Source: an uncultured Lentimicrobiaceae bacterium (lineage in GTDB: Bacteria > Bacteroidota > Bacteroidia > Bacteroidales > 4484-276). Taken from it: a DNA stretch of 64,000 nucleotides. Location: the NCBI GenBank assembly GCA_964593705.1, contig CAZQIV010000015.1, forward strand, positions 11,454-75,453. Direction: 5' to 3'. Position numbers and translations under genes: made by a program. Of the stretch, positions 47,861 to 64,000 are shown in pieces. The notes below the pieces were generated by a model that had not been told where the DNA came from, did no database searches, and worked only from the letters and a program-made list of their open reading frames with translations. Numbering within the stretch: the stretch's first letter is position 1; each line of letters opens with the position of its first letter.

Positions 47861-49045
47861 TTAAATGAACTCTATCACCACTTCTTTTAAAAATTTATCT
47901 TCGAGGATGGCTGCAATTCTTTTAATTACAGTTCTGCGTATTTCGAGTTCGATGGGCAGGGTTGGATCCTGATGGGCAATGTTGATGCGTGTTCCAATGA
48001 TGAAATCTATTTCATCACTTTCAATGATCATTTTTACAATACGGTCGGCGGGGCCTTTGCCCAACATTGTTTGATTGTTATAATCTTTAAGGATAATCGA
48101 AACCTTGGTCAGGGTAAGGATGCCTTCGGTGATCAGGTCAACACCATCCATAAATGAAACCGGCGGGAGGTCAGGGTCTTCAAAATCAAAGGTGTCTTCG
48201 ATTTCTTTGCCCCATTCGCGTGCTATTATGTCGCCGGTTGTGGCTCCTGATAGTACTTTTAGGCCGGCAAAGTTTTTTACTTTTTCAGCATAAATTTTAT
48301 CGTGATCTTTTTCATAAGGAGGCCCTGAACATATAAGCATTTTTCGGGGTTCCCTAAAGTAGATTTGGGCACAACTTGTATCATCTTTCGATTCGAAATT
48401 ATCGTTTTGAACCGCTTTTTTTACCACCCTGGCGCTCAGTTCTGCTGCTGATAAGTCAGGGTGCTTCACAACTTCCCCTATTAAAAATTCTATCAAATCT
48501 TCTCGCCCCCAGCCAAATGGGTATTTATCAGTACCTAAGCCCGATTGGGTAATGCCATCGGAGCAAAAAATAATGCGGTCTTCCTTTTCGGGTGTAAAGG
48601 AACAGGTGCGTAATTCCTTACCCTGATTTTGTTCAGAATTCAGGAATACCTGTTGCCATCCCGGATCCATAATTGTGTTATCCCTAACGATAATAGTCTG
48701 TGGATTATCATATTCGAGAATACTAACATTTCCAGCAATTTCAATATCGAGAATAGTAAAGGTAGCGTAACTGATTTTACGTTCGCTGCATACCGGAAGG
48801 GTGTTCATAATAATCTCTGCAATCTTCTCCAAATTCTGGTGTTCTACCGTAAAATTCAGCGCCATTGTCGAAGTGAGTGTTGCCAGCATATTGGCTTTCA
48901 CGCCGTGCCCCATGCCGTCAGAAAGCACAGCGATAATCCGGTTTTCTTCCTTCACCTTTTTGTGCAGGAATACATCCCCACATATCCGCTCCCCGGCATG
49001 GTTCCGTTGCTGACAATTAACTTCTATATGGAATTCCTTTGACAA
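47861..49045 (-). CDS. PP2C/SpoIIE-family protein phosphatase with uncharacterised C-terminal domain
   Basis: 'ERICGDVFL...AVLSDGMGHGVKANMLATLT' and 'IIFCSDGITQSG'. About 190 aa at the C-terminus match no family I recognise. Confidence 0.8.
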   Translation of the reverse strand: MSKEFHIEVNCQQRNHAGERICGDVFLHKKVKEENRIIAVLSDGMGHGVKANMLATLTSTMALNFTVEHQNLEKIAEIIMNTLPVCSERKISYATFTILDIEIAGNVSILEYDNPQTIIVRDNTIMDPGWQQVFLNSEQNQGKELRTCSFTPEKEDRIIFCSDGITQSGLGTDKYPFGWGREDLIEFLIGEVVKHPDLSAAELSARVVKKAVQNDNFESKDDTSCAQIYFREPRKMLICSGPPYEKDHDKIYAEKVKNFAGLKVLSGATTGDIIAREWGKEIEDTFDFEDPDLPPVSFMDGVDLITEGILTLTKVSIILKDYNNQTMLGKGPADRIVKMIIESDEIDFIIGTRINIAHQDPTLPIELEIRRTVIKRIAAILEDKFLKEVVIEFI

Positions 49046-49334
49046 AATATGACTGAGTTTTGTAACTATTTAGCTATTTTTCCTCTCCCCCTGCCCCTCT
49101 CCATAAGGAGAGGGGAGCCCTCTCTCATGGGATTTGTACATGTATGCTTTAGCCGAAGCGCTTTGCTTTTTCATTTCCTCCAAGTCCCATGAGTTCAGGC
49201 ACCCTTTCCCAGTTGGGGAAAAGGTGTCGGTGCCGAGACGAAGTCTCGTGCATGCACGAGCAAAGCTCGGCAGGATGGGGTCATGATGATTAGGTATTCA
49301 ATCCACCACCTAAATAATTACTGATTTTTAATAT

Positions 49335-49417
49335 TAAAAAAACCCTCCCGCAGATTTCGCTGACCTGCCTAGCCGGCAAGGCTGGTTTGCGCAGATTTAA
49401 TCAGCGAAATCTGCGGG
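49335..49417 (-). terminator. Possible minus-strand terminator / long-loop hairpin between hydS and the phosphatase gene
   Basis: A 17-bp stem (cccgcagatttcgctga / tcagcgaaatctgcggg) is followed on the minus strand by a T7 run. The 37-nt loop is atypically long. Confidence 0.35.
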
Positions 49418-49574
49418 AAAAAATACTAAAAAGACCGATACTAATGAATCCCCGATCATCATCCAAAAAAACAATAACCCTTGATCCCGATAGCTATCAG
49501 AATTATCGGGGTAACAATTAGCAATATCTTATTACCAATAACCATTAACTAATAACTATTAACCAATAACCCTT

Positions 49575-51425
49575 TTACCCCTTCTTTTTCCTGTGCAATT
49601 GAATAATCGAATTTAGCATGGCCTCCGTTTTTGATGCCCCTTCACCCAGCAAAAAACCAATTTGTTGTACCATCCCCAAATTCTGGTCGATAACTTCGGT
49701 TACCCTTTGAATAATTTGTTCGTTACGCACTTCAGGCGAAAACATATCCCTTACTATACCTCCAACCACTTTTTTATCTTTTATCGAAAATACACTTAGA
49801 TTTAAAAATGCTTCATCAATCTTAACATCCCTGCTCAGGATATTTTCGCCGGTAACAAGCACATTTTGAAACACTTTATAAAACTGCACAGGCACCAGGG
49901 TTTTAAGGTCGGCACCCCGAAGGCCGGGTATTATTTCATCTATGTCGCGGGCTTCGTCACCAAGGATTTCAATAAAACTGCGGTTTGAAGAAGTGATTTT
50001 TAACTTGTGATCGACAATAACCACGCCCGAAGGAATCTGATTCATGATGGCACGCGAAGTCTCCAGCTTGTCGTTTGTAAGTTCAAATTCTAACAGACGT
50101 TCTTTAAGTTCCTTTTTAAGATGCTCGATTTCTTTCTCTGATTTCGATTTCGAGTTGCGGAGTGTTTCGATGTATTTATTTTTATTTTTATTATTAAAAT
50201 CCAAACACATATCAGTACGTGTAATTCCATTTGCCACAGCTTTTGCAAACGACTGGCAGGAATCAAAGCCGCAACTGGTACACATCCCGGTTGATTCCCC
50301 GGATTTATCAAGCAAGGTCAAAATTTCATCCACCCTCGAGGCGGCAGGTTCTTCTGCACGCTGATCATCAGATTTAAACCGGCAATTCAGATTTAAGTCC
50401 TTGAATTTCTCCATTTCAAGCTGCCATTTCTTTTCATCCAGATTTTTTATTCTACGTTGGGTATAGTCTAAAACCTGGGCTGTCCTTAAATGTTTGTCAC
50501 CCTTTGGCGACATGCCCGGACCCATCATACATCCTTCGTTGTAAAACACATTAAAATGCTTCTGTACCCGTTCAGTGTTTTTTTCAAACGATTCGATGGC
50601 ATTCAATGAGGATATTTTTCCTTCGGCGCTTATTACCCTTCCATTAAGAAAACTTTGATCGATTGAAGCTGCTTCCAAAATGCCGCTGCTTAGTGGGTAT
50701 AATGAACCAAGATTGCCATGGGGCGGATCAAAATCAGAATATTCGAGTTGGCTTTCGTGTATGTCTTTGTCATCGAAAAGCTGCCTTAACTCGGCAAAAG
50801 TGAGCGCTGCATCAACCTCGGAATTTTCGTCAAATTCGCCCGACCAGAGTTTGGCCGCGATGCATGGCCCAACAAACACAGTTTTGGTTTGCTCGCCATA
50901 TACTGATTTTGCAACCCTTGCAGTTGCATCCATTGGCGAAATAACAGGGGTTAGATTTTTGGTGAGGTCGGGATGAAACTTACGAACCAACTCTACCACA
51001 GCCGGACAATTGGCGGTAATGTAATATTTTCCCCTGCTTTGTTCAAAAAGGGCTTTGTACTTTTGTGAAACAAGGTCAACACCAAAGGAAACATCCAGTA
51101 CAAATTCAAACCCGATCTGTCTTATCATCTCAACAAATTTGCGATAGTCAGTAATATCAGGAAATTCAGCTGAAACACTAGGGTCAACTAAAGCCGCAAC
51201 TTTATGCTCTGATTTTAGCAGGCTGTTAACTCTTGATTTTGAATCATAATATCTAATCCCATCACTTGAGCAGGCAGTAATACATGAACCACACCCAATG
51301 CATCGTTCAGGATCAATTTCGGGATGATCCTTGCCTACTTTTACAATAATGGCATGTACAGGGCAAACTCTTGCACAATGTAAACAATCAGTACATTTTT
51401 CAGGTATGATTTCGATCAGTGCCAT
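49575..51425 (-). CDS. hydS: Sensory-type [FeFe]-hydrogenase paralog with C-terminal PAS domain (HydS/HfsB-like)
   Basis: Two ferredoxin-type CX2CX2CX3CP motifs and an H-domain with 'ITANCPAV' and 'FVGPCIAAK'. Also carries the CX2CX4CX16C motif 'CTSCGFDSC...(16)...C', a coiled coil and a PAS domain ('IPSGVVIVDHKLKITSSNRSFIEILG'). Confidence 0.85.
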   Translation of the reverse strand: MALIEIIPEKCTDCLHCARVCPVHAIIVKVGKDHPEIDPERCIGCGSCITACSSDGIRYYDSKSRVNSLLKSEHKVAALVDPSVSAEFPDITDYRKFVEMIRQIGFEFVLDVSFGVDLVSQKYKALFEQSRGKYYITANCPAVVELVRKFHPDLTKNLTPVISPMDATARVAKSVYGEQTKTVFVGPCIAAKLWSGEFDENSEVDAALTFAELRQLFDDKDIHESQLEYSDFDPPHGNLGSLYPLSSGILEAASIDQSFLNGRVISAEGKISSLNAIESFEKNTERVQKHFNVFYNEGCMMGPGMSPKGDKHLRTAQVLDYTQRRIKNLDEKKWQLEMEKFKDLNLNCRFKSDDQRAEEPAASRVDEILTLLDKSGESTGMCTSCGFDSCQSFAKAVANGITRTDMCLDFNNKNKNKYIETLRNSKSKSEKEIEHLKKELKERLLEFELTNDKLETSRAIMNQIPSGVVIVDHKLKITSSNRSFIEILGDEARDIDEIIPGLRGADLKTLVPVQFYKVFQNVLVTGENILSRDVKIDEAFLNLSVFSIKDKKVVGGIVRDMFSPEVRNEQIIQRVTEVIDQNLGMVQQIGFLLGEGASKTEAMLNSIIQLHRKKKG

Positions 51426-51427
51426 AA

Positions 51428-51676
51428 TTATTTCAATAACTCTTCTTCGAGGATTTTCAGAATTTCATCTTCACCTACACGCTCATAGCGATGGTCGTTG
51501 ATTTTGAAACCGGGCCCATTTTCACAATTCCCAAAACAGTGTTTTCCTTTAAAGTTAACCTTATGTGTAAGTTGATTGTCTTCCAAAAACTTTTTCACAA
51601 TATACACCATTTGCTTATTGCCTCTTGCAAAACAAGAACTCCCAAGGCAAATTATCAGATCTTTCTTTTTTAACAT
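51428..51676 (-). CDS. Thioredoxin-like [2Fe-2S] ferredoxin (NuoE-fold, HfsA-like)
   Basis: 82 aa with a CX4C...CX3C pattern ('CLGSSC'...'CFGNC'). Its stop lies 3 nt from the hydS start. Confidence 0.72.
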   Translation of the reverse strand: MLKKKDLIICLGSSCFARGNKQMVYIVKKFLEDNQLTHKVNFKGKHCFGNCENGPGFKINDHRYERVGEDEILKILEEELLK

Positions 51677-51708
51677 ATCCTAACGAAGACTCAAATTTCT
51701 TTAACCTG

Positions 51709-51862: not shown

Positions 51863-51992
51863 GATTAAAAAGCAAAGATCATAAAAAATATTTTAATAAT
51901 AGTTTAATGTTAAAAATTTAACAATGTGAAACAATTAACAAAAAAGTAGTAATTTTGTCATTGTTAAGCATAACTATTTAATTACTAATTGA

Positions 51993-52457
51993 ATGAATAA
52001 GATAGAGGAGGTGCTTCAAAACTTTCCGAATCACGATCGGGAAAATTTGCTCCCGATTTTGCAGGAAATACAAAAAGCCGAAGGATACATTTCGGAAGAT
52101 GCCGTAGTAAAAGTTGGGAGTTATCTAAATATTCCTACCAGTAAAGTGTATGCAGTATCCACCTTTTACGACCAATTTAGGTTTACAGATAAGGCAAAAT
52201 ACCAAATACATCTTTGCAATGGTACTACCTGCCATCTGGAGGGTGCAGGTAACTTGTTGAAGGCATTTGAAAAGCAACTGAATATTTCGTCAGGACAATT
52301 GACAAAAGACAAATTGTTTGGCATAGCTACCAAACCTTGCATGGGCGCTTGTGGTATGGCTCCGGTTGTTAAAGTAAATGAAAAATTTTATACAGGTTTT
52401 ACTTTGGACAGGGTACAAGAGCTAATTGCTTCGATAAAAGAAAGCGAGGGGGTGTGA
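51993..52457 (+). CDS. hydC: [FeFe]-hydrogenase NuoE-like [2Fe-2S] subunit
   Basis: 154 aa with 'HLCNGTTCHLEGA' and 'KPCMGACGMAPV'. Overlaps hydB by ATGA (52454-52457). Confidence 0.9.
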   Translation: MNKIEEVLQNFPNHDRENLLPILQEIQKAEGYISEDAVVKVGSYLNIPTSKVYAVSTFYDQFRFTDKAKYQIHLCNGTTCHLEGAGNLLKAFEKQLNISSGQLTKDKLFGIATKPCMGACGMAPVVKVNEKFYTGFTLDRVQELIASIKESEGV

Positions 52458-54397
52458 TGGTAACAGAACCCGATTCAAAATATTTAATCGAAAATGTAGT
52501 ATCGAATTTCACACGCGAATACGATGAAAAGGTTCAAAAAAAGATGAACTTTTTGTTGAGGAGAAATTTGAAAAAGCCTGTGATTTTTGTCGGAACCGGT
52601 ACCTGTGGCATTGCAGCAGGGGCAGATCAAACACTTGTAGCTGTTGAAACGTATTTAAAAAAAAATCAATTAGATGCCGATATAGTTGAAGTTGGCTGTA
52701 TTGGACTGTGTAGTGCAGAGCCCCTGCTCGACTTTCAAACACCAGGAAAAGCACGGGTGAGTTTTCAGAAAGCAGGCCATTCAAAAGTTGAAACCATCCT
52801 TGATGAATGTTTTCATAACCATATTTCGGGCAATAATGTTTTAGGTCAGGTTAGGAATGATGAACATGAGTATTGGGAAGGTATTCCCATCATCAATGAT
52901 TTGCCTTTTTTTAAAAAACAAAAACGGGTGTTGCTGTTTGACTGTGGCGAAATTGCACCAAACAGTATTAATGAATACATGGCCCGGGAAGGCTACATGG
53001 CTTTTGTCAAAACCATTTTAAATTACCCCCCCGACATGGTCTGCAATATGATCGAACAAAGTGGCCTCAGGGGAAGGGGTGGTGGGGGTTTTCCAACTGC
53101 CAAAAAATGGAATGTGGTGAGGTCGATCGGTGGAGAACAAAAGTACCTGGTTTGCAATGCCGATGAAAGCGATCCCGGAGCCTATATGGATCGGGCGCTT
53201 GTTGAGGGAAATCCCCACAGGCTGATTGAAGGAATGGCCATTGCCGCGTATGCCATCGGGGCTACGAAAGCTTATGTTTACATCCGCTCTGATTATTCGG
53301 TTGCAGTAAAGCGTTTAAAAAGCGCTTTGGAACAGGCAAAAGAAAATGGGTTTTTGGGAAGGAACATATTTGGCAGCGGAGTTAATTTGCAGATATTTTT
53401 ACGCGAAGGCCCGGGTGCTTTTGTGTGTGGTGAAGAAACAGCATTATTGAAAAGCCTGGAAGGCCGGCGGGGTATGCCACGATCAAAACCTCCCTATCCA
53501 AGCGAAAAAGGATTATTTGGTAAGCCTACGATTGTAAACAATGTGGAGACCCTGGCAAATGTTCCCTTGATTATTTTGAATGGTCCCAAGTGGTTTAAGG
53601 CCATCGGAACACCCGAAAGTGCAGGCACAAAACTCTTTGCCCTGGCTGGTGATACGATAAATACAGGAATTATTGAAGTTCCTTTTGGCATCGGCCTCGA
53701 TGAGATAATTTACGAAATTGGCGGAGGACTGAAAGATGAAAAAATGCTTAAAGCTGTCCAAATCGGTGGGCCTTCGGGCAGCCTGATTCCCGAACAAAAT
53801 ATCGATATAAAAATAGATTACGATGCTTTCAAAGCTGCTTACCTGATTATGGGTTCCGGTGGTCTTGTGGTAATGGACAACAGGAAGTGCATTGTTGATA
53901 CTGTTAAGTATTTTATTGATTTCCTCCAGAAAGAATCTTGTGGGAAGTGCATCCCCTGCCGCGAAGGCACCAACAGAATGTACAAGATTTTGGATGCCAT
54001 TACACAACGGCCTGATGAGGATAATGGCCATGAGTCTCTTATGCGATTTAAGGGTATTTTGCAACTCGAAAGCCTGGCTGAAGTAATCAGCGAAACCTCA
54101 CTTTGTGGCTTGGGTAAAACTGCTCCAAATCCTGTTCTGTCGGCGCTCAAATGGTTCAGGGACGAGTTTGAAGAACACATTTACGAAAGGAAATGCAGGG
54201 CCAATGTTTGTAAGGATTTACGTACTTATATAATCAGTGCCGAACGGTGTACCGGATGCATGGTGTGTTTGAAAAAATGCCCGGAAGATGCCATCACAGG
54301 TTCTGCCAGGCAAACACATTTTATCAACCAGGCAAAGTGTACAAAATGCGGTGTTTGCTATGATGTATGTAAATTTTCAGCTATTGATATTTTATAA
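52454..54397 (+). CDS. hydB: [FeFe]-hydrogenase NuoF-like flavoprotein subunit (NAD(P)H-binding)
   Basis: 647 aa. N-terminal thioredoxin-like 2Fe-2S, FMN site 'GLRGRGGGGFPT', 'CGKCIPCREG', and two C-terminal 4Fe-4S motifs ('CTGCMVCLKKCP', 'CTKCGVCYDVC'). Confidence 0.92.
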   Translation: MMVTEPDSKYLIENVVSNFTREYDEKVQKKMNFLLRRNLKKPVIFVGTGTCGIAAGADQTLVAVETYLKKNQLDADIVEVGCIGLCSAEPLLDFQTPGKARVSFQKAGHSKVETILDECFHNHISGNNVLGQVRNDEHEYWEGIPIINDLPFFKKQKRVLLFDCGEIAPNSINEYMAREGYMAFVKTILNYPPDMVCNMIEQSGLRGRGGGGFPTAKKWNVVRSIGGEQKYLVCNADESDPGAYMDRALVEGNPHRLIEGMAIAAYAIGATKAYVYIRSDYSVAVKRLKSALEQAKENGFLGRNIFGSGVNLQIFLREGPGAFVCGEETALLKSLEGRRGMPRSKPPYPSEKGLFGKPTIVNNVETLANVPLIILNGPKWFKAIGTPESAGTKLFALAGDTINTGIIEVPFGIGLDEIIYEIGGGLKDEKMLKAVQIGGPSGSLIPEQNIDIKIDYDAFKAAYLIMGSGGLVVMDNRKCIVDTVKYFIDFLQKESCGKCIPCREGTNRMYKILDAITQRPDEDNGHESLMRFKGILQLESLAEVISETSLCGLGKTAPNPVLSALKWFRDEFEEHIYERKCRANVCKDLRTYIISAERCTGCMVCLKKCPEDAITGSARQTHFINQAKCTKCGVCYDVCKFSAIDIL

Positions 54398-54429
54398 AGT
54401 AAAATTCATGAAGTTTCAAGTAAACGAAC

Positions 54430-54518
54430 ATAACGAATAATACCGGGCTTCGCTCGAGCATCCTCGAAAAGTTACGAAAATCAAGATTTTCTACTTTTCG
54501 GGACAATTAACCAATAAC
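54430..54518. repeat. Composite hairpin element E1, 'empty' form, in the hydB-hydA spacer
   Basis: ataacgaataataccgggcttcgctcgagcatcctcgaaaagttacgaaaatcaagattttctacttttcgggacaattaaccaataac. It is homologous to 56701-56797 and, in reverse orientation, to 61160-61271 and 62300-62432. Confidence 0.85.
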
Positions 54519-54531
54519 TCCAAAGCTTCAC

Positions 54532-56253
54532 ATGATCTTCAATATCGAAGTAAATAATAAAACCATCAGAGCAAAGAAAGGAGACACCATTCTTGAAACA
54601 CTCAGGAGAAATGGTATTTCGGTGCCAACGCTTTGCAACATGGAGACATTCTCGCCTACGGGAGCTTGCCGGATTTGTGTGGTTGAAGTAGATGGCCACG
54701 ATGACCTGATTCCTGCCTGCTCGCACCCTGTGGATGAGTGGATGAAAATACATACTCATTCTCCAAAGGTGATAAGGGCAAGAAGAACGATTGTTGAATT
54801 ATTGCTTTCCAGCCATCCGGATGATTGCCTTTACTGCATCCGAAATAAGAATTGTGAATTGCAAACCCTGGCCGAAGAATTGGGAATTAGGGAGCGTCGT
54901 TTGCCGATTGTAAAAAAGAATCTGAAAAAAGACCCCTCCTGTTCCAGCATAGTGCGCGATCCGGATAAGTGCATTCTTTGTGGAAGGTGTGTGCGGATGT
55001 GTAAAGAGAAAATTGGGGTTTCCACCTTCGATTTTATCGGAAAAGGAATGAAAACAATTGTTGGCCCAACATTCAACAATCTGCTCAATATTTCCAATTG
55101 CATCACCTGCGGGCAGTGCATCATGGTTTGCCCAACGGGAGCATTACACGAGAAAGAACATATAGGTCAGGTGCATGAGGCCTTGCAAAATCCAGAGAAA
55201 TACACAGTTGTCCAGATTTCGCCAACAATTTCAGTTTCGCTGGCCGAAGAATTTAATGTGAAATCAGGTAAGGAAATGGATGGACTTTTGGTAGCAACAC
55301 TTCGGAAGATCGGTTTTAAAAAAGTTTTTAAAACAGCTTTTGCTGCCGATATTATGGTGTTGCAAATCGTTGAAGAACTGGTAAGCCGGATTGAGCAAAA
55401 TGAAAACCTCCCCATGTTTTCGAGCGATTGTCCGGCATTTATCAAGTATATGGAAGAATACCATCCCGACATGCTTCATCATATTTCGGTTTACAAATCA
55501 CCACAACAAATCATGGGCAGCCTTATCAAACATCATTTTTCGCGTCAACAAAAGATAAAGGCTGAACAGATTCATTCAGTATCGCTTATGCCCTGTACTG
55601 CAAAAAAGTTTGAAGCACAACGCGAGGAAAACACGCACAAGGGTATCCAGGATGTGGATTCGGTGCTTACTACACGTGAGCTTGCACGACTAATTCGTCT
55701 CTATGGATTGGATATTCAGCAGGCCGAACCTGAATTAGCTGACAGCCCTTTTGCCATTCGCAGTTCGGCGGGTAAAATAATTGGAGCAAGCGGGGGGGTG
55801 GCCGAGGCGGTTTATCGCACACTTTATCACACCATGACAGGTAAAAATCTTTTAAACTTCAAAATTACAGCCTTGCGAAGCAACAAAAATGTGAAAGAAC
55901 TCCATAGCAAAATTGGAAAAACCAAGATTGGTATTGCCGCGGTAAATGGACTTGAAAATGCTAAGGATCTCATACGACAAATTAAAGCAGGCAGGGACGA
56001 TTTACAATTTATCGAGGTAATGGTTTGTCCGGGAAGTTGCATTAACGGTGGAGGACAACCCATATCAAAGAATAAAGAGGCCGTAAAAGCCAGGATGAAA
56101 TCATTGTATGATATCGATGAAAAGGAGTCGATAAAAGTATCGTATAAAAATCCGGCAGTGAAAGATCTGTTTGAAAAATACGATGGAAAGGAGAAAGAAT
56201 CATTCAGGGAAAAACTCAAAACAAGTTACAGAAAAAGGGATGTATTGCTATAA
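54532..56253 (+). CDS. hydA: [FeFe]-hydrogenase large subunit (M3 architecture) with non-canonical L1 motif
   Basis: 573 aa. N-terminal plant-type 2Fe-2S, a His/Cys 4Fe-4S, and 2x[4Fe-4S] ('CILCGRCVRMC', 'CITCGQCIMVCP'). H-domain motifs are 'PMFSSDCPAF', 'LMPCTAKKFE' and 'EVMVCPGSCINGGGQP'. Confidence 0.9.
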   Translation: MIFNIEVNNKTIRAKKGDTILETLRRNGISVPTLCNMETFSPTGACRICVVEVDGHDDLIPACSHPVDEWMKIHTHSPKVIRARRTIVELLLSSHPDDCLYCIRNKNCELQTLAEELGIRERRLPIVKKNLKKDPSCSSIVRDPDKCILCGRCVRMCKEKIGVSTFDFIGKGMKTIVGPTFNNLLNISNCITCGQCIMVCPTGALHEKEHIGQVHEALQNPEKYTVVQISPTISVSLAEEFNVKSGKEMDGLLVATLRKIGFKKVFKTAFAADIMVLQIVEELVSRIEQNENLPMFSSDCPAFIKYMEEYHPDMLHHISVYKSPQQIMGSLIKHHFSRQQKIKAEQIHSVSLMPCTAKKFEAQREENTHKGIQDVDSVLTTRELARLIRLYGLDIQQAEPELADSPFAIRSSAGKIIGASGGVAEAVYRTLYHTMTGKNLLNFKITALRSNKNVKELHSKIGKTKIGIAAVNGLENAKDLIRQIKAGRDDLQFIEVMVCPGSCINGGGQPISKNKEAVKARMKSLYDIDEKESIKVSYKNPAVKDLFEKYDGKEKESFREKLKTSYRKRDVLL

Positions 56254-56700
56254 AAGAGTATGGAAATTGGAGAATAAATAGAAAAGAAAACTTGATTATC
56301 AATAATCAAAAACGATTAATCTGCCGCTGGCCGGAAAAGCTCAACAACTAATAAAAGGTACTACTGCGAATTTAGTGGAAAGTAAAATATTAATCATGAG
56401 TAGTAAAATAGATTTCTCAGTCCCCGAAGTGTCGGGGCAGGCTGCAAACTTCTTCGAAATGACAGGGCTTTGGCGGGTTTGTTGGGGTGGTTGAAAGTGG
56501 GCGCTTCGCGCCCACTTTCAACCACCCCTTGTGGAGTCCTATCCTTGTGTTTTCGAACCGCCAACTGGCGGTGAGACCTACCTCGCCAACACCATTGCTT
56601 ACACTAACGGCCCGCTTCGCAGCGAGGCGAGCAAGGCGGGAATCTGTTTACGGTGATAGTAATTATTTACATCCACGAAAATGGTAATAGAACCTAATAT

Positions 56701-56797
56701 AATAACGAATAACTAATAATGCCGAGCTTTGCTCGGGCATCCTCGAAAAATTACGAAAATCAAAGATTTTCTATTTTTCGGGACCAATAACCATTAA
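56701..56797. repeat. Composite hairpin element E1, 'empty' form, upstream of the hydrogenase-kinase gene
   Basis: ataacgaataactaataatgccgagctttgctcgggcatcctcgaaaaattacgaaaatcaaagattttctatttttcgggaccaataac..., in the same orientation as 54430-54518. Confidence 0.85.
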
Positions 56798-56875
56798 CGA
56801 ATAACCAATAACCATTAACGAATAACCATTAACCAATAACCATTAACCAATAACGAATAACTAATAACGAACACC
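56784..56875. repeat. Degenerate heptamer microsatellite (NAWTAAC x ~13)
   Basis: caataac cattaac gaataac caataac cattaac gaaataac cattaac caataac cattaac caataac gaataac taataac. It ends 4 nt before ATG 56879. Shorter runs of the same words occur at 49531-49572, 54505-54518 and 32243-32275. Confidence 0.85.
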
Positions 56876-56878
56876 CCA

Positions 56879-58867
56879 ATGAGTCACTCGAAACGTAAAC
56901 AATTGGTATTTACTGTAAAAGACCGCTGCAGGGTATGCTACACCTGCGTAAGAGAGTGTCCTGTAAAGGCCATTCGTATTGAAAATGGCCAGGCCGAAGT
57001 GATCAATGAGCGCTGCATTGGCTGCGGTAATTGTACCATAGTGTGCAGCCAGGGCGCTAAAGTTTTTTTGCAAACAGGTGATGATTTAAAAACCTTGCTA
57101 CAGGAAGGGCAAAAAGTAGCAGCAATCATTGCCCCAAGTTTTCCGGCTGAATTTACCGAAATAGATGATTACAAAACCTTTGTCGGGATGGTAAGGAAAT
57201 TAGGTTTTAACCTGGTTTGCGAGGTAGCTTTTGGTGCAGATATGGTAGCGAGGGAATATAAAAAAATGCACCATGAGCGGGGTAAGCTTGGGAGCATCTC
57301 ATCTGATTGTCCCGCGATTGTATTTTATATTGAGCATTACCATCCCCACCTGGTAAAGGATTTGGCAAAAGTTGTTTCGCCTATGGTAGCCATGACACGG
57401 GTTGTAAAAGAAAAATATGGCAGCGATACCAAAGTTGTTTTCATTGGCCCCTGCATTGCTAAAAAAGCTGAGTCGGATGAAGTTGATGAGTCTATTACTT
57501 TTAAGGAATTAAGAGATCTTTTTACAGCAAACAATATTACCCCAAAAAACACCGACTCCACAGACTTTGATCCGCCCCATGCAGGAAAAGGAGCAATTTT
57601 CCCTGTAAGTCGCGGATTGTTGCAAACAGCAGGTATTTCAGAGGATATCATTAACGAAAATGTAATTGTTGCTTCAGGGAGGGTTAATTTCAGGGAGGCT
57701 GTCAGGGAATTTGAAAACGAAGAAGAAGATAAGCACCACCTAGAGCTCTTATGCTGTCGGGGTTGTATTGTTGGTCCGGGAATGTCGAAACGAGGTTCGA
57801 GATACAGCCGACGTACCAAGGTGAGTAATTACGTTAGAAAAAGATTGCAGGACATCGACAAGAGTGAATGGGGAAAAAATGTAGAAAAGTACAGCACACT
57901 CAATTATCAGCAGCAGCACGATGTTCGGGATCGCAGGCTGCCGGTGCCAAGCGAAGACCAAATCAGGGAAGTATTGGAAACTATTGGGAAATTTGAAGAA
58001 AAAGATCATTTAAATTGTGGTTCCTGCGGTTACGATACCTGCCGCGAACATGCCATTGCCATTGTGCAGGGACTGGCCGAGGATGAAATGTGTCTTCCCT
58101 ACAGCATCGAAAAATTACATCAATCCATTAGTGACCTTAACACCTCAAATAAAAACCTGGCTTCAACAAGACAGGCATTGAAGCAATCAGAAAAACTCGT
58201 AAGCCTGGGGCGCCTTTCAGCCGGAATTGCGCATGAGCTTAACAATCCCCTGGGTGTAATTACCATGTACAGCAACATTCTTAAAGATGAAGCGGCCGAA
58301 GACGATCCGGTCCGTCAGGATCTTGATCTCATTATAGAACAGGCTGCAAGATGCAAGAAAATTGTTGGTGGCTTACTCAATTTTGCACGGAAAAGTCAGG
58401 TTAACCTTAGCCCAACCAATATTATCGATTTTGTAAAACAAAGTCTAACATCCGTAATTAAACCTGAGAATATCATCATTGATTTTCAAAGTGAAATATC
58501 AAATCCAATGGCCAATATTGATACCGACCAGATGATGCAGGTGCTAACCAACCTTGAAAAGAATGCGGTGGAAGCCATGCCCGATGGTGGAATACTTAGT
58601 ATAACTCTTAATAATGATGCTGAACAAATTTTTATCAATATTGGCGATACAGGTACAGGTATTTCAAAAGAAAATATGGAACATGTTTTCACGCCATTTT
58701 TTACTACAAAAGGAATTGGCCAAGGTACAGGGCTCGGCCTGCCGTTGGTTTATGGAATAGTAAAAATGCACAAGGGGAAGATTGATGTCGTTTCAAATGC
58801 CGATCCTGAATCCGGGTCAACAGGAACTACTTTTAAAGTAAGCTTTCCGCGAGCTTTGGAGAATTGA
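56879..58867 (+). CDS. Sensory [FeFe]-hydrogenase H-domain fused to a histidine kinase
   Basis: 662 aa. 2x[4Fe-4S] ('CRVCYTCVRECP', 'CIGCGNCTIVCS'). H-domain 'ISSDCPAIV', 'FIGPCIAKKAE' and 'LLCCRGCIVGPG'. CX2CX4CX16C motif ('CGSCGYDTC...C'). Then HisKA 'SAGIAHELNNPLG' and HATPase_c boxes ('NLEKNAVEAM', 'IGDTGTGI', 'GTGLGLPLV'). Confidence 0.87.
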   Translation: MSHSKRKQLVFTVKDRCRVCYTCVRECPVKAIRIENGQAEVINERCIGCGNCTIVCSQGAKVFLQTGDDLKTLLQEGQKVAAIIAPSFPAEFTEIDDYKTFVGMVRKLGFNLVCEVAFGADMVAREYKKMHHERGKLGSISSDCPAIVFYIEHYHPHLVKDLAKVVSPMVAMTRVVKEKYGSDTKVVFIGPCIAKKAESDEVDESITFKELRDLFTANNITPKNTDSTDFDPPHAGKGAIFPVSRGLLQTAGISEDIINENVIVASGRVNFREAVREFENEEEDKHHLELLCCRGCIVGPGMSKRGSRYSRRTKVSNYVRKRLQDIDKSEWGKNVEKYSTLNYQQQHDVRDRRLPVPSEDQIREVLETIGKFEEKDHLNCGSCGYDTCREHAIAIVQGLAEDEMCLPYSIEKLHQSISDLNTSNKNLASTRQALKQSEKLVSLGRLSAGIAHELNNPLGVITMYSNILKDEAAEDDPVRQDLDLIIEQAARCKKIVGGLLNFARKSQVNLSPTNIIDFVKQSLTSVIKPENIIIDFQSEISNPMANIDTDQMMQVLTNLEKNAVEAMPDGGILSITLNNDAEQIFINIGDTGTGISKENMEHVFTPFFTTKGIGQGTGLGLPLVYGIVKMHKGKIDVVSNADPESGSTGTTFKVSFPRALEN

Positions 58868-58911
58868 ATTAATGGAGATTGGTTAAAAGTTTAATGAGTA
58901 AAATCTAAAAA

Positions 58912-58986
58912 CCCAAACGCTACTGATTTTTAGCGCTTCTCCCTTTAGGGTCTGGGGTAAAAAGCGCTAAAAATCAGTAGTTTGGG
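58912..58986. repeat. Long hairpin with another module in its loop
   Basis: The stem cccaaacgctactgatttttagcgctt / aagcgctaaaaatcagtag-tttggg encloses ctccctttagggtctggggt, a module also seen at 61022-61045. Confidence 0.8.
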
Positions 58987-59080
58987 AAAGTCCCCTTCAG
59001 GGGATTTAGGGGTATTAAGGCTTTTTAGATTGGTCTCTTTAATTATTTAACAATTAAAAACTGAAAAATTAGTATAGAAA

Positions 59081-59467
59081 ATGAAGAAAACAATTTTGAT
59101 TGTTGATGATGATATGGATTACCTGTTTCAATTGAAATTAAAAGTTGAAAAGTTTGGCTTTGATGTGGTAACTGCTGATGGGCAACGCGAAGGTGAAAAA
59201 GTAATTGAATCGCTCAAGCCCGATTTGGCCATTATTGATTTGATGATGGAAAACGAAGACAGTGGATTTGTATTGAGCTATAAAATAAAAAAGAAATACC
59301 CCAATGTGCCGGTAATCCTCGCCACCGCAGTTACTGCCGAAACAGGCATGGGTTTCGATCTGAGCGAAGCAAGTAACAAAGAATGGATTAAGGCCGATTT
59401 AATCCTGGACAAAGGTATCCGGGGCGATCAACTCGAAAAAGAGATTAAGAAATTATTAAAAATATAG
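59081..59467 (+). CDS. Stand-alone response-regulator receiver (CheY-like)
   Basis: 128 aa with 'ILIVDDD', phospho-acceptor context 'DLAIIDLMM', and a conserved T/K region. No output domain. Confidence 0.85.
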   Translation: MKKTILIVDDDMDYLFQLKLKVEKFGFDVVTADGQREGEKVIESLKPDLAIIDLMMENEDSGFVLSYKIKKKYPNVPVILATAVTAETGMGFDLSEASNKEWIKADLILDKGIRGDQLEKEIKKLLKI

Positions 59468-59805
59468 ATATCGTTGCATATTTAATGGACAGCTTTAATT
59501 GTTTTTTTTGAACCTTTGTGCCTCCGTGCCTCTGTGGTTTGTATTTTGACCACGAAGTCACAAAGGCACAAAGTAAAATATTGCCGCCATAATTTATTTA
59601 ATATTTTGAGATGATATGATTCAGAAAAACTGTATGTTAAAAATTTTAATACAAAAATCAATGGTAAATAGAAATTCGCTGATGGCTATCGGGGCTAAGG
59701 ACTGATCCCGAAAGCTATCGGGACTGAGAACTGATGTGTAAAAAAGCAATTGAATTTATAAGTAGGTGTTCAAAATAATAGTCGCAGAACTAAATTATAC
59801 AAAGT

Positions 59806-60924
59806 ATGGCAAAACTAAAAATACTGGTTGTTGATGATGAACCGGGCATCCGCTCTGGAGTTATACGCATCTTACGAAACTTTAAGGTGGATTATCCTTT
59901 TATGGATGAACACTATGATTTCCAGGTGTTCGAGGCTGCCGATGGGGAAGATGGAATAGCGCTTATAGATGGCGAGCAACCGGATATTGTGCTACTCGAC
60001 AACAAGCTTCCCGGCATACAGGGGGTGGAGGTATTGGAGTACATCCGCAACAAAAAGTACGATATGTTTGTGGTAATGATCACGTCTTATGCCTCCTTGG
60101 AACTGGCCGTAAAGGCTACCCACGATGGGGCAGTTGACTTTATCCCGAAACCATTCACACCCCAGGAACTCAAATCATCGCTCGAAACCATTGTAAAGCA
60201 GATTTACCTTAAGCGTATGGCCCGCGAAATGAAACAGCAGGGCAAACAAATCCGCTTTCAGTTTTTATCAGTTTTATCACACGAGCTTAAAGCGCCCCTC
60301 AATGCCGTTGAAGGTTATCTTAATATAATTAAAGACCGCCAGTTGGGAGATAATATTAACGATTACAACGAACTTATCAATCGGTCGTTGAAAAGGCTGT
60401 CGGGGATGCGTAACCTGATTTTTGATCTTTTGGATCTTACTAAAATAGAATCGGGCAAACAAAGCCAGCGGACGGAAAACACTGATTTGGTAACTATTGT
60501 GCGCAATGCTATCGATACCATGATGCCTTTTGCCATCCAGAAAGAAGTGGAGGTAGCATTGAATGGACCTGAAAAAATGATTAAATTTATCGATCCCGAA
60601 GAAATGGAAATCATTTTAAATAACCTCATTTCAAATGCTATAAAGTACAACAGGCAAAAAGGAACAGTGAATATTAACCTTGCTGAAGGAGATGGTAAAA
60701 CAACAATTCGGGTTGAAGATTCGGGAATTGGCATCAATAAAGAGGACCAGGCAAAGCTTTTCAAGGACTTTTCGAGGATAAAAAATCCGAAAACAAAAAA
60801 TATAACAGGAAGTGGGCTGGGATTATCCATTGTAAAAAAAATAGTTGAACTAAATAAGGGAAGTATCCAAGTTGAAAGCGAACCGGATAAAGGGACTGTT
60901 TTTACTGTAATCTTACCTGTTTAG
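59806..60924 (+). CDS. Hybrid receiver-histidine kinase (REC-HisKA-HATPase_c)
   Basis: 372 aa with 'ILVVDDEPGIR', 'DIVLLDNKLPG', H-box 'LSVLSHELKAPLNAV', N-box 'NLISNAIKYN', and G-boxes 'VEDSGIGI' and 'GSGLGLSIV'. Confidence 0.88.
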   Translation: MAKLKILVVDDEPGIRSGVIRILRNFKVDYPFMDEHYDFQVFEAADGEDGIALIDGEQPDIVLLDNKLPGIQGVEVLEYIRNKKYDMFVVMITSYASLELAVKATHDGAVDFIPKPFTPQELKSSLETIVKQIYLKRMAREMKQQGKQIRFQFLSVLSHELKAPLNAVEGYLNIIKDRQLGDNINDYNELINRSLKRLSGMRNLIFDLLDLTKIESGKQSQRTENTDLVTIVRNAIDTMMPFAIQKEVEVALNGPEKMIKFIDPEEMEIILNNLISNAIKYNRQKGTVNINLAEGDGKTTIRVEDSGIGINKEDQAKLFKDFSRIKNPKTKNITGSGLGLSIVKKIVELNKGSIQVESEPDKGTVFTVILPV

Positions 60925-60927
60925 TCC

Positions 60928-61077
60928 TTGCAAGAAAACTATTAATGTTGAAAATCAGCATTCACCCCGGCCCTAACTCGCTTCGCAGCGGGAGGGAGTT
61001 TTGATTTTCAACAGTTTGCTCCCTTTAGGGATGGGGTGATCAAGCTGTTGAAAATCTAATTGTCGGAGTTTTCTTGC
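60928..61077. repeat. Nested palindromic composite after the hybrid kinase gene
   Basis: The outer pair tgcaagaaaact / agttttcttgca encloses the tgttgaaaatca...ttgattttcaaca hairpin. That hairpin's loop carries a cgcttcgcagcggg module. A ctccctttagggatggggtg module also lies inside. Confidence 0.8.
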
Positions 61078-61150
61078 AAACACTATTTAAGTGAGAGAGA
61101 AAATATAATGTGTATCAGGGTATTTTTCCAAGTCAACAGTCTTTGCCAAC

Positions 61151-61280
61151 TGTGGACTGCCAATCCCGAAAAGTAGAAAATTTCAGAATTTCGTAACTTT
61201 TCGAGCCCGCCTTGCCGCCAGCATAGGCTTTTGTTTAGGCGAGGCAGGGATGCACGGGCGAAGCCCGGCACTGTGGACTG
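61151..61280. repeat. E1 composite (reverse orientation) carrying a 43-nt nested insertion
   Basis: cccgaaaagtagaaaat...ttcgtaacttttcgag | cccgccttgccgccagcataggcttttgtttaggcgaggcagg (61206-61248) | gatgcacgggcgaagcccgg. It is flanked by tgtggactg on both sides. Confidence 0.85.
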
Positions 61281-61340
61281 ATTTTTAAACAACAAAGGTT
61301 CACAAAAATTAAAGTAGAACAAAATATTAATGAAGCAAGC

Positions 61341-62279
61341 GTGAAAGTATTCAGAGACATTGAAAATCTTCCAGCCATCAGCAATTGTGTTGTTACAACC
61401 GGTTCCTTCGATGGAGTGCATATTGGCCATCAGGTGTTAATTGACAGGCTCAATGAGCTGGCCAGGACTATTGGCGGCGAATCCGTGCTCATCACTTTTT
61501 ATCCGCATGTGCGAAAAGTGCTCTACCCGGAAACCAAAGGTAAAGATCTGGAGATGATTAATTCGCAGAGCGAAAAAATTGAACTGCTCGAAAAAACCGG
61601 GCTGGATAACCTGGTGCTCATCAATTTTACACTTGAATTTTCAAAAACATCAGCCGAAGATTTTGTGCGGAAATTACTGGTAGGTAAGTTGGGGGCCAGG
61701 ATTATTGTTGTAGGCTACAACCATTATTTTGGTCATAATAAAGAGGGGAATTACGTTAAGTTGATAAAATTGGGGAAAGAGATCAACTTTGAAGTCGTGG
61801 AAATTCCAAAGCAGGAACTTGAGAAAGAAACAGTGGGCTCTACAAAAATCCGTAAGTCGCTCAAAAATGGTAAGATAATGCACGCCAATGCTTACCTCGA
61901 CCACATTTACTTTATCCACTCCGTTTTTTGTGTGGGTAGTGAGCTCTATAGTAATCTGGGGTTTAAAACTTTTGTGGTAAAAATTGAAGAAGACAGCAAG
62001 CTAATTCCTCCTGACGGAATTTATGCTATCAGGGCCGAAATTGATGGCCTTATCTCAAAAGGCATGATGCTCAATAATTACCATGGAACATTTATACACC
62101 CGGAACTCAAAAATGCGGTAGAAATATACTTGTTTGAAACCGGCCTTGACTATTGCAATAAATTCGGAAAAGTATTTGTACACAAGGAGATGAGCAGAAC
62201 AATTCAGCTAAACGATAAAGAAAAACTTCAAAGTCAGATGGTAACTATTAGGTCAGAAATTGAAGAACTAATATATTAA
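61341..62279 (+). CDS. ribF: Bifunctional riboflavin kinase / FAD synthetase
   Basis: 312 aa with 'TGSFDGVHIGHQ', 'GYNHYFGHNKEG' and 'STKIRKSL'. The start is GTG 61341. Confidence 0.9.
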   Translation: MKVFRDIENLPAISNCVVTTGSFDGVHIGHQVLIDRLNELARTIGGESVLITFYPHVRKVLYPETKGKDLEMINSQSEKIELLEKTGLDNLVLINFTLEFSKTSAEDFVRKLLVGKLGARIIVVGYNHYFGHNKEGNYVKLIKLGKEINFEVVEIPKQELEKETVGSTKIRKSLKNGKIMHANAYLDHIYFIHSVFCVGSELYSNLGFKTFVVKIEEDSKLIPPDGIYAIRAEIDGLISKGMMLNNYHGTFIHPELKNAVEIYLFETGLDYCNKFGKVFVHKEMSRTIQLNDKEKLQSQMVTIRSEIEELIY

Positions 62280-62289
62280 TTTGGTACTA

Positions 62290-62455
62290 CAGTGGACTGT
62301 GAATCCCGAAAAATAGAAAATCTATGATTTTCGTAATTTTTCGTGCCCGCCTTGTTCGCCTCGCTGCGAAGCGGGCCGCCAGTGCAGGCTTTTGTATAGG
62401 CGAGGCAGGGATGCACGGGCAAAGCCCGGCACTGCCAACTGTGGACTGCCAACTG
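62290..62455. repeat. E1 composite (reverse orientation) carrying a 64-nt doubly nested insertion
   Basis: The framework is the same as 61151-61280. The insert at 62346-62409 equals the 43-nt module plus a further 21 nt (ttcgcctcgctgcgaagcggg) inside it. It is flanked by gtggactg words. Confidence 0.85.
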
Positions 62456-62475
62456 ACTTAGTAAATTTTGAATTA

Positions 62476-63258
62476 ATGGACAATAAGAAGATTACAATAA
62501 CCTTTCTCGGAACAGGTACTTCCATAGGTGTGCCCGTTATTACCTGCGATTGCGCGGTATGCACCTCCACCGACCCACGCGATAACCGCACACGGGCTTC
62601 GGTGATGATAGAAGTTGATGACAAGGTTTTTGTGATCGACTGTGGCCCGGATTTTAGGATGCAGATGCTGCGCGAAAATGTGAAGAACTTATCGGCAATA
62701 CTATTTACCCACGAGCACCGCGATCATATTGCAGGTCTCGACGATGTAAGGGCTTTCAACTATGTGCTCAACAAGCGCATCGATATTTACGGATTGGATA
62801 GAACTCTTGAAATGGTTAAAACTGAATTTCCATACATTTTCACTCCTCAGCGCTACTTTGGAGCGCCACAAATCAATCTGAATATTATCGACTCGAATCC
62901 ATTTGCCATAGACGGATATAATTTTATCCCCCTTACGGTTTATCACGATAAGCTGCCCATTTTGGGTTTTCGTTTTGGCGATTTCACCTATATCACCGAT
63001 GCCAGTCGTGTTGATGATACTGAACTTGAAAAAGCGAAAGGATCAAAAGTCGTGGTTTTAAATGCTTTACGCAATTCAAGACATCCCTCACACTTTTCGG
63101 TGGATGAAGCACTGGAGATCATCGAAAAACTAAACCCTGAAGTTGCTTATCTTACACACATGAGCCACTTCATTGGCAAACACGAAGAACTTGATGCCCG
63201 ATTGCCCGAAAATGTTCACCCTGCCTACGATGGCCTGCGGATTGAACTTCCAGTGTGA
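62476..63258 (+). CDS. MBL-fold metallo-hydrolase (PhnP-like)
   Basis: 'ITFLGTGTSIGVP' and 'THEHRDHIAG'. The start is placed at ATG 62476 ('MDNKKITITFLG'), because the track ORF N-terminus is translated repeat sequence. Confidence 0.85.
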   Translation: MDNKKITITFLGTGTSIGVPVITCDCAVCTSTDPRDNRTRASVMIEVDDKVFVIDCGPDFRMQMLRENVKNLSAILFTHEHRDHIAGLDDVRAFNYVLNKRIDIYGLDRTLEMVKTEFPYIFTPQRYFGAPQINLNIIDSNPFAIDGYNFIPLTVYHDKLPILGFRFGDFTYITDASRVDDTELEKAKGSKVVVLNALRNSRHPSHFSVDEALEIIEKLNPEVAYLTHMSHFIGKHEELDARLPENVHPAYDGLRIELPV

Positions 63259-63414
63259 TGCTGTTAAATCCTGAACTTCATATCAGGGAATCCAACATTT
63301 ATAACCGTGTTAAACAACGCATTCTCTTGCAAAAGTAAACGTTCGATATTGTAAACTTTGCGAAGCAAATAATTGCTGTAATTTGTACTTTAAATTAAGT
63401 AAACGATTACCAAA

Positions 63415-64000
63415 ATGATATTCAATCCGGAGAAATACGCCATTCCTGACGAAGCCATGAAACCCTTCATCGACCCTGATGAAATTAATGGATACCTTCA
63501 AAAATCAAAAGCCACTAAGGCCAGGGTTAGGGAAATAATAGCCAAGTCGCTTTCCAAAAAGCGCCTTAACCTTGAAGAAACAGCCACGCTCATCAATGCA
63601 GATGACCCTGAGCTGATCGGGGAAATAAAAAATGGCGCCCGCGAACTCAAGAAAACGGTCTATGGGAATCGTATTGTTTTGTTTGCCCCGCTTTATATTG
63701 GTAATCATTGCATTAATAATTGTAAATACTGCGGTTTTAAAGCCTCCAACAAATTTGCAGTCCGCCGCAAATTAACAGATGAGGAAATTATACGCGAAAC
63801 CGAGGCTCTTGAAGATAATGGCCAAAAACGTCTTATTCTGGTTTATGGAGAACATCCCATGTACAACCCCGAATTTATTGCGCATTCTGTGAAGTTGGTT
63901 TATGGTGTGAAAAAAGGAAACGGTGAAATCAGGCGTGTTAATATTAATGCCGCACCACTCGACATCGAGGGTTTCCGCACGGTGAAAAATGCCGGTATAG
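63415..64000 (+). CDS. hydG: [FeFe]-hydrogenase maturase HydG (radical SAM, ThiH-like), 5' partial
   Basis: An open frame from ATG 63415 runs off the window, so it is absent from the ORF track. Translation: 'MIFNPEKYAIPDEAMKPFIDPDEINGYLQKSKATKARVREII...LFAPLYIGNHCINNCKYCGFKASN'. It has a CX3CX2C motif and a HydG-like N-terminus. Confidence 0.82.
   Translation, partial: MIFNPEKYAIPDEAMKPFIDPDEINGYLQKSKATKARVREIIAKSLSKKRLNLEETATLINADDPELIGEIKNGARELKKTVYGNRIVLFAPLYIGNHCINNCKYCGFKASNKFAVRRKLTDEEIIRETEALEDNGQKRLILVYGEHPMYNPEFIAHSVKLVYGVKKGNGEIRRVNINAAPLDIEGFRTVKNAGI

Follow-up and report, generated by a model that had tools for sequence, protein, structure and literature searches.

The locus described here raises the question of what a hydrogenase-like sensor joined to a histidine kinase (HK) would sense, and how the signal would leave it. 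The gene in question, hydS-HK, lies in a stretch of 64,000 nucleotides of contig CAZQIV010000015.1 from an uncultured Lentimicrobiaceae bacterium (the window, to which all coordinates refer), and encodes a HydS-type [FeFe]-hydrogenase sensor and a kinase in one open reading frame (ORF). The favoured reading is that HydS-HK is a sensor kinase in which H2 at the H-cluster acts through a coiled coil on the kinase/phosphatase balance at His452, and from there through receivers on the control of the HydABC hydrogenase. This account is considered probable, with confidence somewhat above even. The parts of the gene are as follows.

56879..58867, + strand: hydS-HK, 662 amino acids (aa), ATG start, HydS-type [FeFe]-hydrogenase sensor and histidine kinase in one ORF
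Residues 13-60: Fer4-type dicluster (Pfam)
56927..57049, + strand: two ferredoxin-type CX2CX2CX3C [4Fe-4S] motifs, CRVCYTCVRECP (residues 17-28) and CIGCGNCTIVCS (residues 46-57)
57110..57778, + strand: H-domain, Fe_hyd_lg_C (PF02906), residues 78-300, Pfam E 1e-46, full profile 1-245
57299-57313, + strand: L1 motif SSDCP, residues 141-145
57446-57466, + strand: L2 motif GPCIAKK, residues 190-196
57743-57781, + strand: L3 motif ELLCCRGCIVGPG, residues 289-301
58016..58093, + strand: C-terminal CX2CX4CX16C cluster motif (CGSCGYDTCX16C), residues 380-405
Residues 378-407: PF04060 'FeS' (Pfam)
58094..58231, + strand: predicted signalling helix or coiled coil of 46 residues between the last cluster Cys405 and the phospho-acceptor His452, residues 406-451
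58205..58852, + strand: HisKA (residues 443-505, His452) and HATPase_c (residues 548-658)

The domains were called with Pfam, and every one of them scores above its curated cutoff, including HisKA (52 bits) and HATPase_c (77 bits). An earlier note, made from the sequence alone, had described a single polypeptide of 662 residues with two ferredoxin-type clusters, an extra CX2CX4CX16C motif and a complete HisKA/HATPase_c core. The ORF call, the Pfam domains and the exact motif positions agree with this description, and the extra motif is found at residues 380-405. All eight cysteines of the ferredoxin-type motifs are invariant in an alignment of 46 homologues, as are C380, C383, C388 and C405 of the C-terminal motif. 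The kinase half has the features of the HisKA family. The H-box HELNNPL (residues 452-458) places its histidine in the hairpin of the dimerization and histidine phosphotransfer (DHp) domain, which the AlphaFold2 model builds from helices 440-471 and 477-504. It is followed by the N box NLEKNAVEAM (558-567), the G1 box DTGTGI (590-595), the F box FTPFFTTK (604-611) and the G2 box GTGLGL (616-621). The closest solved relative of this half is the cytoplasmic domain of ZraS (9jfj, E 1e-33), and LvrB (8vc9) is likewise among the solved relatives. A Foldseek search pairs the N-terminal part (~430-450 residues) with [FeFe]-hydrogenases (E about 1e-20), and the C-terminal part with the cytoplasmic domain of ZraS; none of the matched chains in the PDB is described as a sensory HydS.

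The sensor is fused directly to the kinase, and the boundaries hold when they are checked by profile searches, alignment and structure prediction. Pfam finds no domain, and so no PAS, at residues 407-443. No membrane segment is found in the protein, as the Kyte-Doolittle mean over 19 residues peaks at 1.18. The M2f architecture of TmHydS has a PAS domain after the C-terminal cluster, whereas the AlphaFold2 model of HydS-HK has only helix there (406-471). A PAS domain or transmembrane segment hidden in the linker is ruled out by Pfam, the model and the hydropathy, in line with what had been read from the sequence at first. HydS-HK is a soluble sensor kinase with a complete HydS-type (group C, putatively sensory) input module, and is presumably dimeric.

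The fusion is genuine, because six independent metagenome contigs carry an identical protein and the homologues are universally fused; an assembly or fusion artefact is ruled out on the same two grounds. The 120 best database homologues share 62-94% identity over 89-100% of the length, with coverage of at least 98% in all but two. The hydrogenase, FeS, HisKA and HATPase_c domains occur together in all 120; the two shortest are without the N-terminal Fer4 motifs but otherwise complete. Beyond these, about 40 clusters, one of them from Chloroflexota, matched colinearly and over the full length at 35-49% identity in a HMMER scan of 1.84 billion representatives at 50% identity. A kinase encoded by a separate gene in all relatives had been named beforehand as the sign of an artefact; it is fused in 120/120 of the closest homologues and in the roughly 40 clusters. 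The named sources among the 120 are metagenome-assembled genomes of Bacteroidales or other Bacteroidota, and type IX secretion system sorting domains elsewhere in the window are consistent with Bacteroidota. A contig scan with HydS-HK alone reached close relatives only, as its patterns were too specific, and the breadth outside Bacteroidota is given by a few named matches (Chloroflexota, Delongbacteria) and the literature.

The same HydS input module is also fused to PAS-HK, GAF-GAF-HK, HK-REC (REC, receiver domain), PAS-HK-REC-REC, a sigma54 AAA+ activator and PAS-sigma54 activators. Because one module is joined to so many types of output, it appears to be a portable input domain. In three of these proteins (P0189, P0191 and P0214) the module is joined directly or through a PAS domain to sigma54-type AAA+ activators with HTH_8 or HTH_50. 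Such fusions would be one-component H2-responsive enhancer-binding proteins, and no mention of them was found in the literature surveyed.

The active site was mapped through a HMMER alignment to CpI of C. pasteurianum and an alignment to the canonical HydA of the same window. The H-cluster ligands C300, C355, C499 and C503 of CpI correspond to C144, C192, C293 and C296, and the CN-binding K358 to K195. All of these residues are invariant in the 46 aligned homologues. In the second sphere, M353 is Gly190 and M497 is Leu291. In the proton path, E279 and E282 fall within a deletion, S319 is replaced by Ala and the relay residue C299 is Asp143. Judged by its sequence, the H-domain is of the sensory type as in TmHydS and TamHydS (PMC10055695, PMC8163306), since M353 and M497 are replaced and it no longer has the group A proton path. 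The sensory substitutions proposed in the earlier note are borne out by this mapping, with the Gly at M353 and the quoted L2 and L3 strings in place, but its list lacked the changes of C299 to Asp and M497 to Leu.

The only characterised sensory [FeFe]-hydrogenases are TmHydS from Thermotoga maritima (group C/M2f) and TamHydS from Thermoanaerobacter mathranii (group D/M2e). HydS-HK resembles both in its pair of N-terminal [4Fe-4S] clusters, in an H-domain that lacks the group A proton path and in its C-terminal CX2CX4CX16C motif. The Gly at M353 is as in TmHydS and the Leu at M497 is as in TamHydS. Of the three only HydS-HK has a kinase; the C-terminal end of TmHydS is a PAS domain, and TamHydS lacks an output domain. 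HydS-HK has the group C pattern, with the four H-cluster cysteines and the lysine, the loss of the group A second sphere and proton path, and the N- and C-terminal cluster motifs. It does not fit group D (M2e, TamHydS-like), where M353 is replaced by Ser or Thr and an output domain is lacking (PMC8163306), since it has Gly190 at the M353 position and a fused kinase. One residue deviates from group C. The characterised sensory enzymes TmHydS and TamHydS have Ala at the C299 position (PMC10407848), while HydS-HK and 120/120 of its close homologues have Asp (SSDCP in 119, ASDCP in 1).

The segment between sensor and kinase was modelled as helix. The AlphaFold2 model (mean predicted local distance difference test score 78) has only two helices between the FeS domain and DHp, at 406-433 and 440-471. 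A heptad runs unbroken up to His452, with I410 at an a position and L406, L413, L420, L427, L434, V441 and A448 at d. Asn424 occupies an a position, and Asn at a is a hallmark of parallel dimeric coiled coils. The linker therefore reads as an unbroken leucine zipper, at least as predicted from its residues. The coiled linker of the earlier note stands as a helix with a heptad, but its position is better given as 406-451 than as ~400-440.

The length of this linker varies among relatives in steps of seven. The spacer from the last cysteine to the phospho-histidine is 32, 39, 46, 53 or 67 residues (congruent to 4 mod 7) in 33 of 39 non-redundant fused clusters, and six lengths fall out of register. 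Among the spacers other than 46, 15/21 are in heptad register (binomial p about 5e-9, shared ancestry uncorrected). A heptad-quantised spacer is what would be expected of a rigid signalling helix that ties the DHp bundle to the position of the cluster domain. Together with the unbroken zipper, it supports signal transmission through the coiled coil.

The genes around hydS-HK encode a hydrogenase upstream and two receiver proteins downstream, as called by Pfam (with NCBIfam for hydC, hydB and hydA).

51993-52457, + strand: hydC, NuoE-like
52454-54397, + strand: hydB, NuoF-like
54532-56253, + strand: hydA, group A, with N-terminal 2Fe-2S, NuoG-type and 2x[4Fe-4S] domains
59081..59467, + strand: stand-alone receiver, 128 aa (Response_reg)
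59806..60924, + strand: REC-HisKA-HATPase_c hybrid, 372 aa, LvrB-like layout

The hydC-hydB-hydA genes (51993..56253) encode a HydABC-type, putatively electron-bifurcating [FeFe]-hydrogenase, which is the presumed target of regulation by HydS-HK. The window proteins were placed on related loci (given here as L numbers) by tblastn. The order hydC-hydB-hydA-hydS/HK-REC-REC/HK is kept in the 10 Bacteroidota loci that span the full cassette, and shorter contigs agree with it. Among the families with this order are Lentimicrobiaceae, Rikenellaceae and Marinilabiliaceae. A hydA-type gene lies directly 5' of hydS-HK in the mapped loci; the exception is L017, a 4.5-kb contig in which hydC, hydS-HK and REC-HK follow one another without the stand-alone REC. 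The 128-aa receiver and the receiver-kinase hybrid named at first are both confirmed by Pfam, and their place is not due to chance, as it is syntenic in all Bacteroidota loci with enough flank except L017 and in relatives of 38-48% identity.

The more distant relatives vary this theme. A relative of 48% identity has the same order with hydG and hydF nearby. One of 44% has the same order with a REC-PAS-HK variant, and one of 38% has the same order followed by hydE and hydG. At 49% identity, another relative keeps the stand-alone REC and has no REC-HK. In the Chloroflexota relative a classical NtrC-type response regulator comes after the fusion, and hydABC is not adjacent. The stand-alone REC is the most constant downstream partner of hydS-HK. 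The hybrid REC matches the NtrC-type receiver with 67-74 bits, compared to 25-34 bits for the stand-alone REC. The domain order of the hybrid is shared with the REC-HK protein LvrB of Leptospira.

A Rex gene and a radical-SAM/BATS maturase are often found 3' of the cassette in related loci, and hydE/G/F maturase genes are close by, both in the window contig and in relatives. In the window itself, positions 63415-64000 on the + strand hold the first part of a radical-SAM/BATS gene for a HydG- or HydE-like maturase, which is 76% identical to the gene of L004 and runs past the window end. A scan of 51400-61400 for sigma70 promoters and terminators gave counts no better than shuffles, with a model that is not fitted to Bacteroidota promoters. 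An Rfam scan of 47000-64000 found one tRNA only.

The HydA of the window (54532-56253) is itself unusual at the relay position, since a residue other than Cys is unusual there in a bifurcating group A enzyme. It has Asp for the proton-relay Cys (FSSDCPAF compared to the canonical TSCCP), and its L2 and L3 are otherwise canonical. The position varies among the orthologues: L004 and L008 have Asp, L007 has Asn, L015 has Ser, and L009, L010, L011 and L013 have Cys; L005, where the motif match was doubtful, is left out of this comparison. M353 of HydA is replaced by Glu in L008 and by Ala in L015.

The mechanism proposed for HydS-HK would begin with a reaction of H2 at the H-cluster, which would alter the H-domain in its redox state or its conformation, with the two N-terminal [4Fe-4S] clusters as the electron outlet. 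The change would pass through the C-terminal CX2CX4CX16C domain, whose last ligand, Cys405, starts the 46-residue coiled-coil helix. This helix would continue into the DHp helix with His452, so that a rotation or piston movement could shift the balance between kinase and phosphatase. Phosphoryl groups would then move to the adjacent stand-alone receiver, to the REC-HK hybrid or to both, and the relay would adjust the expression or activity of the upstream HydABC and the maturases to the H2 level. The binding of an H-cluster, the role of H2 as signal, the direction in which regulation runs and the routes of phosphotransfer are inferred, and the output is read from adjacency only.

Several observations weigh against this mechanism. 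Asp at the C299 position is the one substitution that preserves activity in group A enzymes, and H2 turnover by HydS-HK might therefore exceed what a pure sensor requires. The cassette encodes no DNA-binding output, and a tblastn search of the 64-kb window found no other response regulator and no Rex, which leaves the final output component outside the window; the regulated target is therefore a guess from adjacency. The gap from hydA to hydS-HK is 626 bp of repeat-rich DNA in the window, compared to an overlap or roughly 10-100 bp in relatives, so co-transcription of the two genes is not assured in the window. Full-text literature searches found no experimental study of any kinase-fused member. 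In TamHydS, H2 causes changes in secondary structure and the C-terminal cluster is not reduced (PMC13104023), which suggests that the redox state of this cluster is probably not the signal. The earlier note had taken cluster redox or H2 state as what is transmitted. Because H2 leaves the C-terminal cluster of TamHydS unreduced, that of HydS-HK is taken here as a structural anchor and not as a redox relay.

A second sensor module is encoded opposite to hydC, with Rex-like sites between the two.

47861..51676, - strand: divergent second sensor module (Pfam), opposite to hydC, composed of the next three genes
51428-51676, - strand: small 2Fe-2S protein, 82 aa
49575-51425, - strand: PAS-HydS, 616 aa
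47861-49045, - strand: SpoIIE/PP2C phosphatase
51907..51941, + strand: two adjacent Rex-box-like palindromes, ATGTTAAAAATTTAACAA and ATGTGAAACAATTAACAA, positioned at -86 and -69 relative to the start of hydC

PAS-HydS is 37% identical to HydS-HK over 443 aa, and the module is conserved in L005, L007, L008 and L015. In all five orthologues checked (the window and these four loci), PAS-HydS has no cysteine equivalent to C499 (FYN[E/Q]GC) and carries Ala or Thr in place of K358 (PCIAAK). PAS-HydS may not bind a normal H-cluster, though it is conserved together with the PP2C phosphatase. Loci L009, L010, L013 and L014 are without the divergent PAS-HydS module and have a stand-alone receiver just 5' of hydC (about 3220-3735). 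In L009 this receiver has 171 aa with a long insertion, and a NarL/LuxR-type response regulator is found further upstream. In L025, Rex and REC lie 5' of hydC.

L005, L007 and L008 also have Rex-box-like sites at about -70, and L015 has one at -123. There are six such sites in 4 kb of upstream DNA, compared to a background of 0.057 per kb. The sites are no more than suggestive of an action of Rex (NADH/NAD+) on the hydCBA locus. A separate 39-nt palindrome (TGATTAATTCACAAA...TTTGTGAATTAATCA, 51708-51746) lies nearer to the divergent small 2Fe-2S gene.

The intergenic DNA of the window is rich in repeats. The operon gaps (54397-54532, 56253-56879, 58867-59081, 59467-59806, 60924-61341 and 62279-62392) are much longer than in relatives. 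They carry members of dispersed repeat families, among them copies at 54430-54484 and 56709-56763, at 61214-61280 and 62375-62441, and an inverted pair at 56577-56783 and 62304-62409. These repeats look like repetitive extragenic palindromes or miniature inverted-repeat transposable elements. They match no Rfam family and yield spurious ORFs (e.g. '...PGFARASLPRL...'). A heptanucleotide array, ACCAATA in 12.3 copies (56783-56868), ends 10 nt 5' of the hydS-HK start codon, and a shorter one of 5.4 copies (49534-49571) adjoins the PAS-HydS gene at its 3' end. A role of the ACCAATA array as a phase-variation tract is unsupported, as the copy number is the same in three other assemblies of the same sequence.

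The strongest alternative to H2 sensing by HydS-HK is that the protein senses redox poise. The N-terminal clusters would equilibrate with ferredoxin and the kinase would report the redox state of ferredoxin or of the cell, while the H-cluster would only couple the protein to H2 or would be dispensable. The two conserved ferredoxin-type clusters would suit such a sensor, and the reduction of an N-terminal cluster by H2 in TamHydS (PMC13104023) offers a precedent. The Rex-like boxes in the locus and the Rex genes in relatives also suggest that redox inputs matter. However, the H-cluster ligands and K358 are invariant in the 46 homologues, which is hard to square with a dispensable H-cluster, and a plain Fe-S or PAS sensor would be a cheaper solution. 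Because all H-cluster ligands are invariant, H2 chemistry appears to matter in HydS-HK. As the whole explanation, redox poise is considered unlikely; it may be part of the truth.

The position of hydS-HK directly after hydA, sometimes overlapping it (L004), raises the possibility of a fourth HydABC subunit, and one survey names the gene as subunit T of the cluster, 'BfuT' (PMC11406978). Such a subunit would be stably bound and would modulate the enzyme directly; its kinase would target the complex or itself and not gene expression. However, the matched HydABC structures (8a6t, 7p8n, 7q4w) have no such subunit, the Chloroflexota fusion has an NtrC-type regulator beside it and no adjacent hydABC, and a complete HisKA kinase next to receivers speaks for signalling by phosphotransfer. 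This explanation is therefore improbable. A degenerate, Narf/Nar1-like Fe-S protein without a [2Fe] subcluster, sensing O2 or Fe-S cluster status, is plausible for the PAS-HydS paralogue but very unlikely for HydS-HK, which retains C300, C355, C499, C503 and K358 and has the hydG/E/F maturases near its locus in the window contig and in relatives, even though degeneration does occur in the family, as the loss of the C499-equivalent cysteine and K358 in PAS-HydS indicates, and even though H-cluster motifs were reported to be hard to find in some group C1 sequences (PMC11406978).

The H2-sensing kinase may be one of several inputs to the locus, since a separate PAS-HydS/PP2C module, and probably also Rex, would act on the same genes. 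A tentative extension is that one bifurcating hydrogenase is under three-input control: HydS-HK would sense H2 with its C-terminal [4Fe-4S] cluster as a mechanical anchor and a register-locked coiled coil, PAS-HydS would sense something other than H2 and act through PP2C, and Rex would be the third input, with the invariant Asp tuning the response to H2. Taken as a whole this extension is rather doubtful. If it is true, it would be the first [FeFe] system with H2 sensing read out directly as phosphorylation.

The architecture is not new. It is already catalogued in databases and in one survey paper and is common in Bacteroidota, so the novelty implied by the earlier note was overstated, and the two-sensor layout is likewise in genome surveys (PMC5037454, PMC11406978). 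HydDB defined [FeFe] group C1 in 2016 as 'histidine kinase-linked (putative)' (PMC5037454). Its 'linked' refers to the association of the class with co-transcribed regulatory elements and not explicitly to a fusion, whereas HydS-HK is a fusion. The C1 example from Petrimonas mucosa (ING2E5A_0849), which lies beside hnd genes (PMC7768429), is like HydS-HK a putative H2 sensor tied to histidine kinase signalling in Bacteroidales, beside a bifurcating hydrogenase. Similar proteins have been placed in C1 (PMC7768429) or C3 (PMC11406978). The mSystems survey of 2024 described a group C 'BfuT' with a histidine kinase domain downstream of bfuA in Caldithrix abyssi (WP_006928132.1) and Hydrogenedentota, in sub-type V BfuABC, and a second bfuT upstream of bfuC in the Bacteroidota Perlabentimonas, Tenuifilum and Williamwhitmania (PMC11406978). 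The window has this sub-type V layout, with PAS-HydS on the - strand followed by hydC, hydB, hydA and hydS-HK, and so do L005, L007, L008 and L015. In both cases the kinase-bearing sensor gene is directly 3' of bfuA/hydA; the likeness to BfuT is by description. That paper is a genome survey and does not deal with the linker, with the REC/REC-HK relay or with active-site residues (PMC11406978). No description was found in the literature surveyed of a linker quantised in heptads, of an Asp that is invariant at the relay position or of the deeply conserved REC/REC-HK cassette. These findings are modest additions and not a new system.

Two other kinds of system are related in part. The HisKA kinases of the ZraS/AtoS/NtrB type include ZraS, to which the HydS-HK core is closest, but the inputs of ZraS, AtoS, NtrB and LvrB are periplasmic or PAS and never Fe-S or hydrogenase domains. 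The HoxBC-HoxJ-HoxA system of Cupriavidus and Rhodobacter (group 2b [NiFe]) follows the logic proposed for HydS-HK, from a slow sensor hydrogenase to a histidine kinase to hydrogenase expression. However, its metal site and fold are unrelated, its sensor and kinase are separate and joined through the PAS domain of HoxJ, and its output is of the NtrC type. Only PF02906 [FeFe]-hydrogenase domains are found in HydS-HK and its neighbours, and the likeness to HoxBC-HoxJ-HoxA is an analogy of function only.

Reviews and mechanistic papers describe group C only with PAS fusions and do not mention kinases (PMC8924675, PMC11216029, PMC13104023). The sensory role of group C and D [FeFe]-hydrogenases is still called 'putative' (PMC8924675), and the 2026 study of TamHydS regards the signalling partner as the critical missing step (PMC13104023). 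In the HydS-HK family this partner is covalently attached. Because of this, autophosphorylation under H2 compared to an inert gas would be a direct readout without a search for the partner, and the heptad-locked linker is a concrete hypothesis that can be tested by mutation. The value of HydS-HK is in its tractability and not in discovery. The family is abundant in the Bacteroidales of anaerobic digesters, sediments and guts, where the H2 partial pressure controls the balance of fermentation, and it may therefore be a main route by which these Bacteroidales set their hydrogenase levels.

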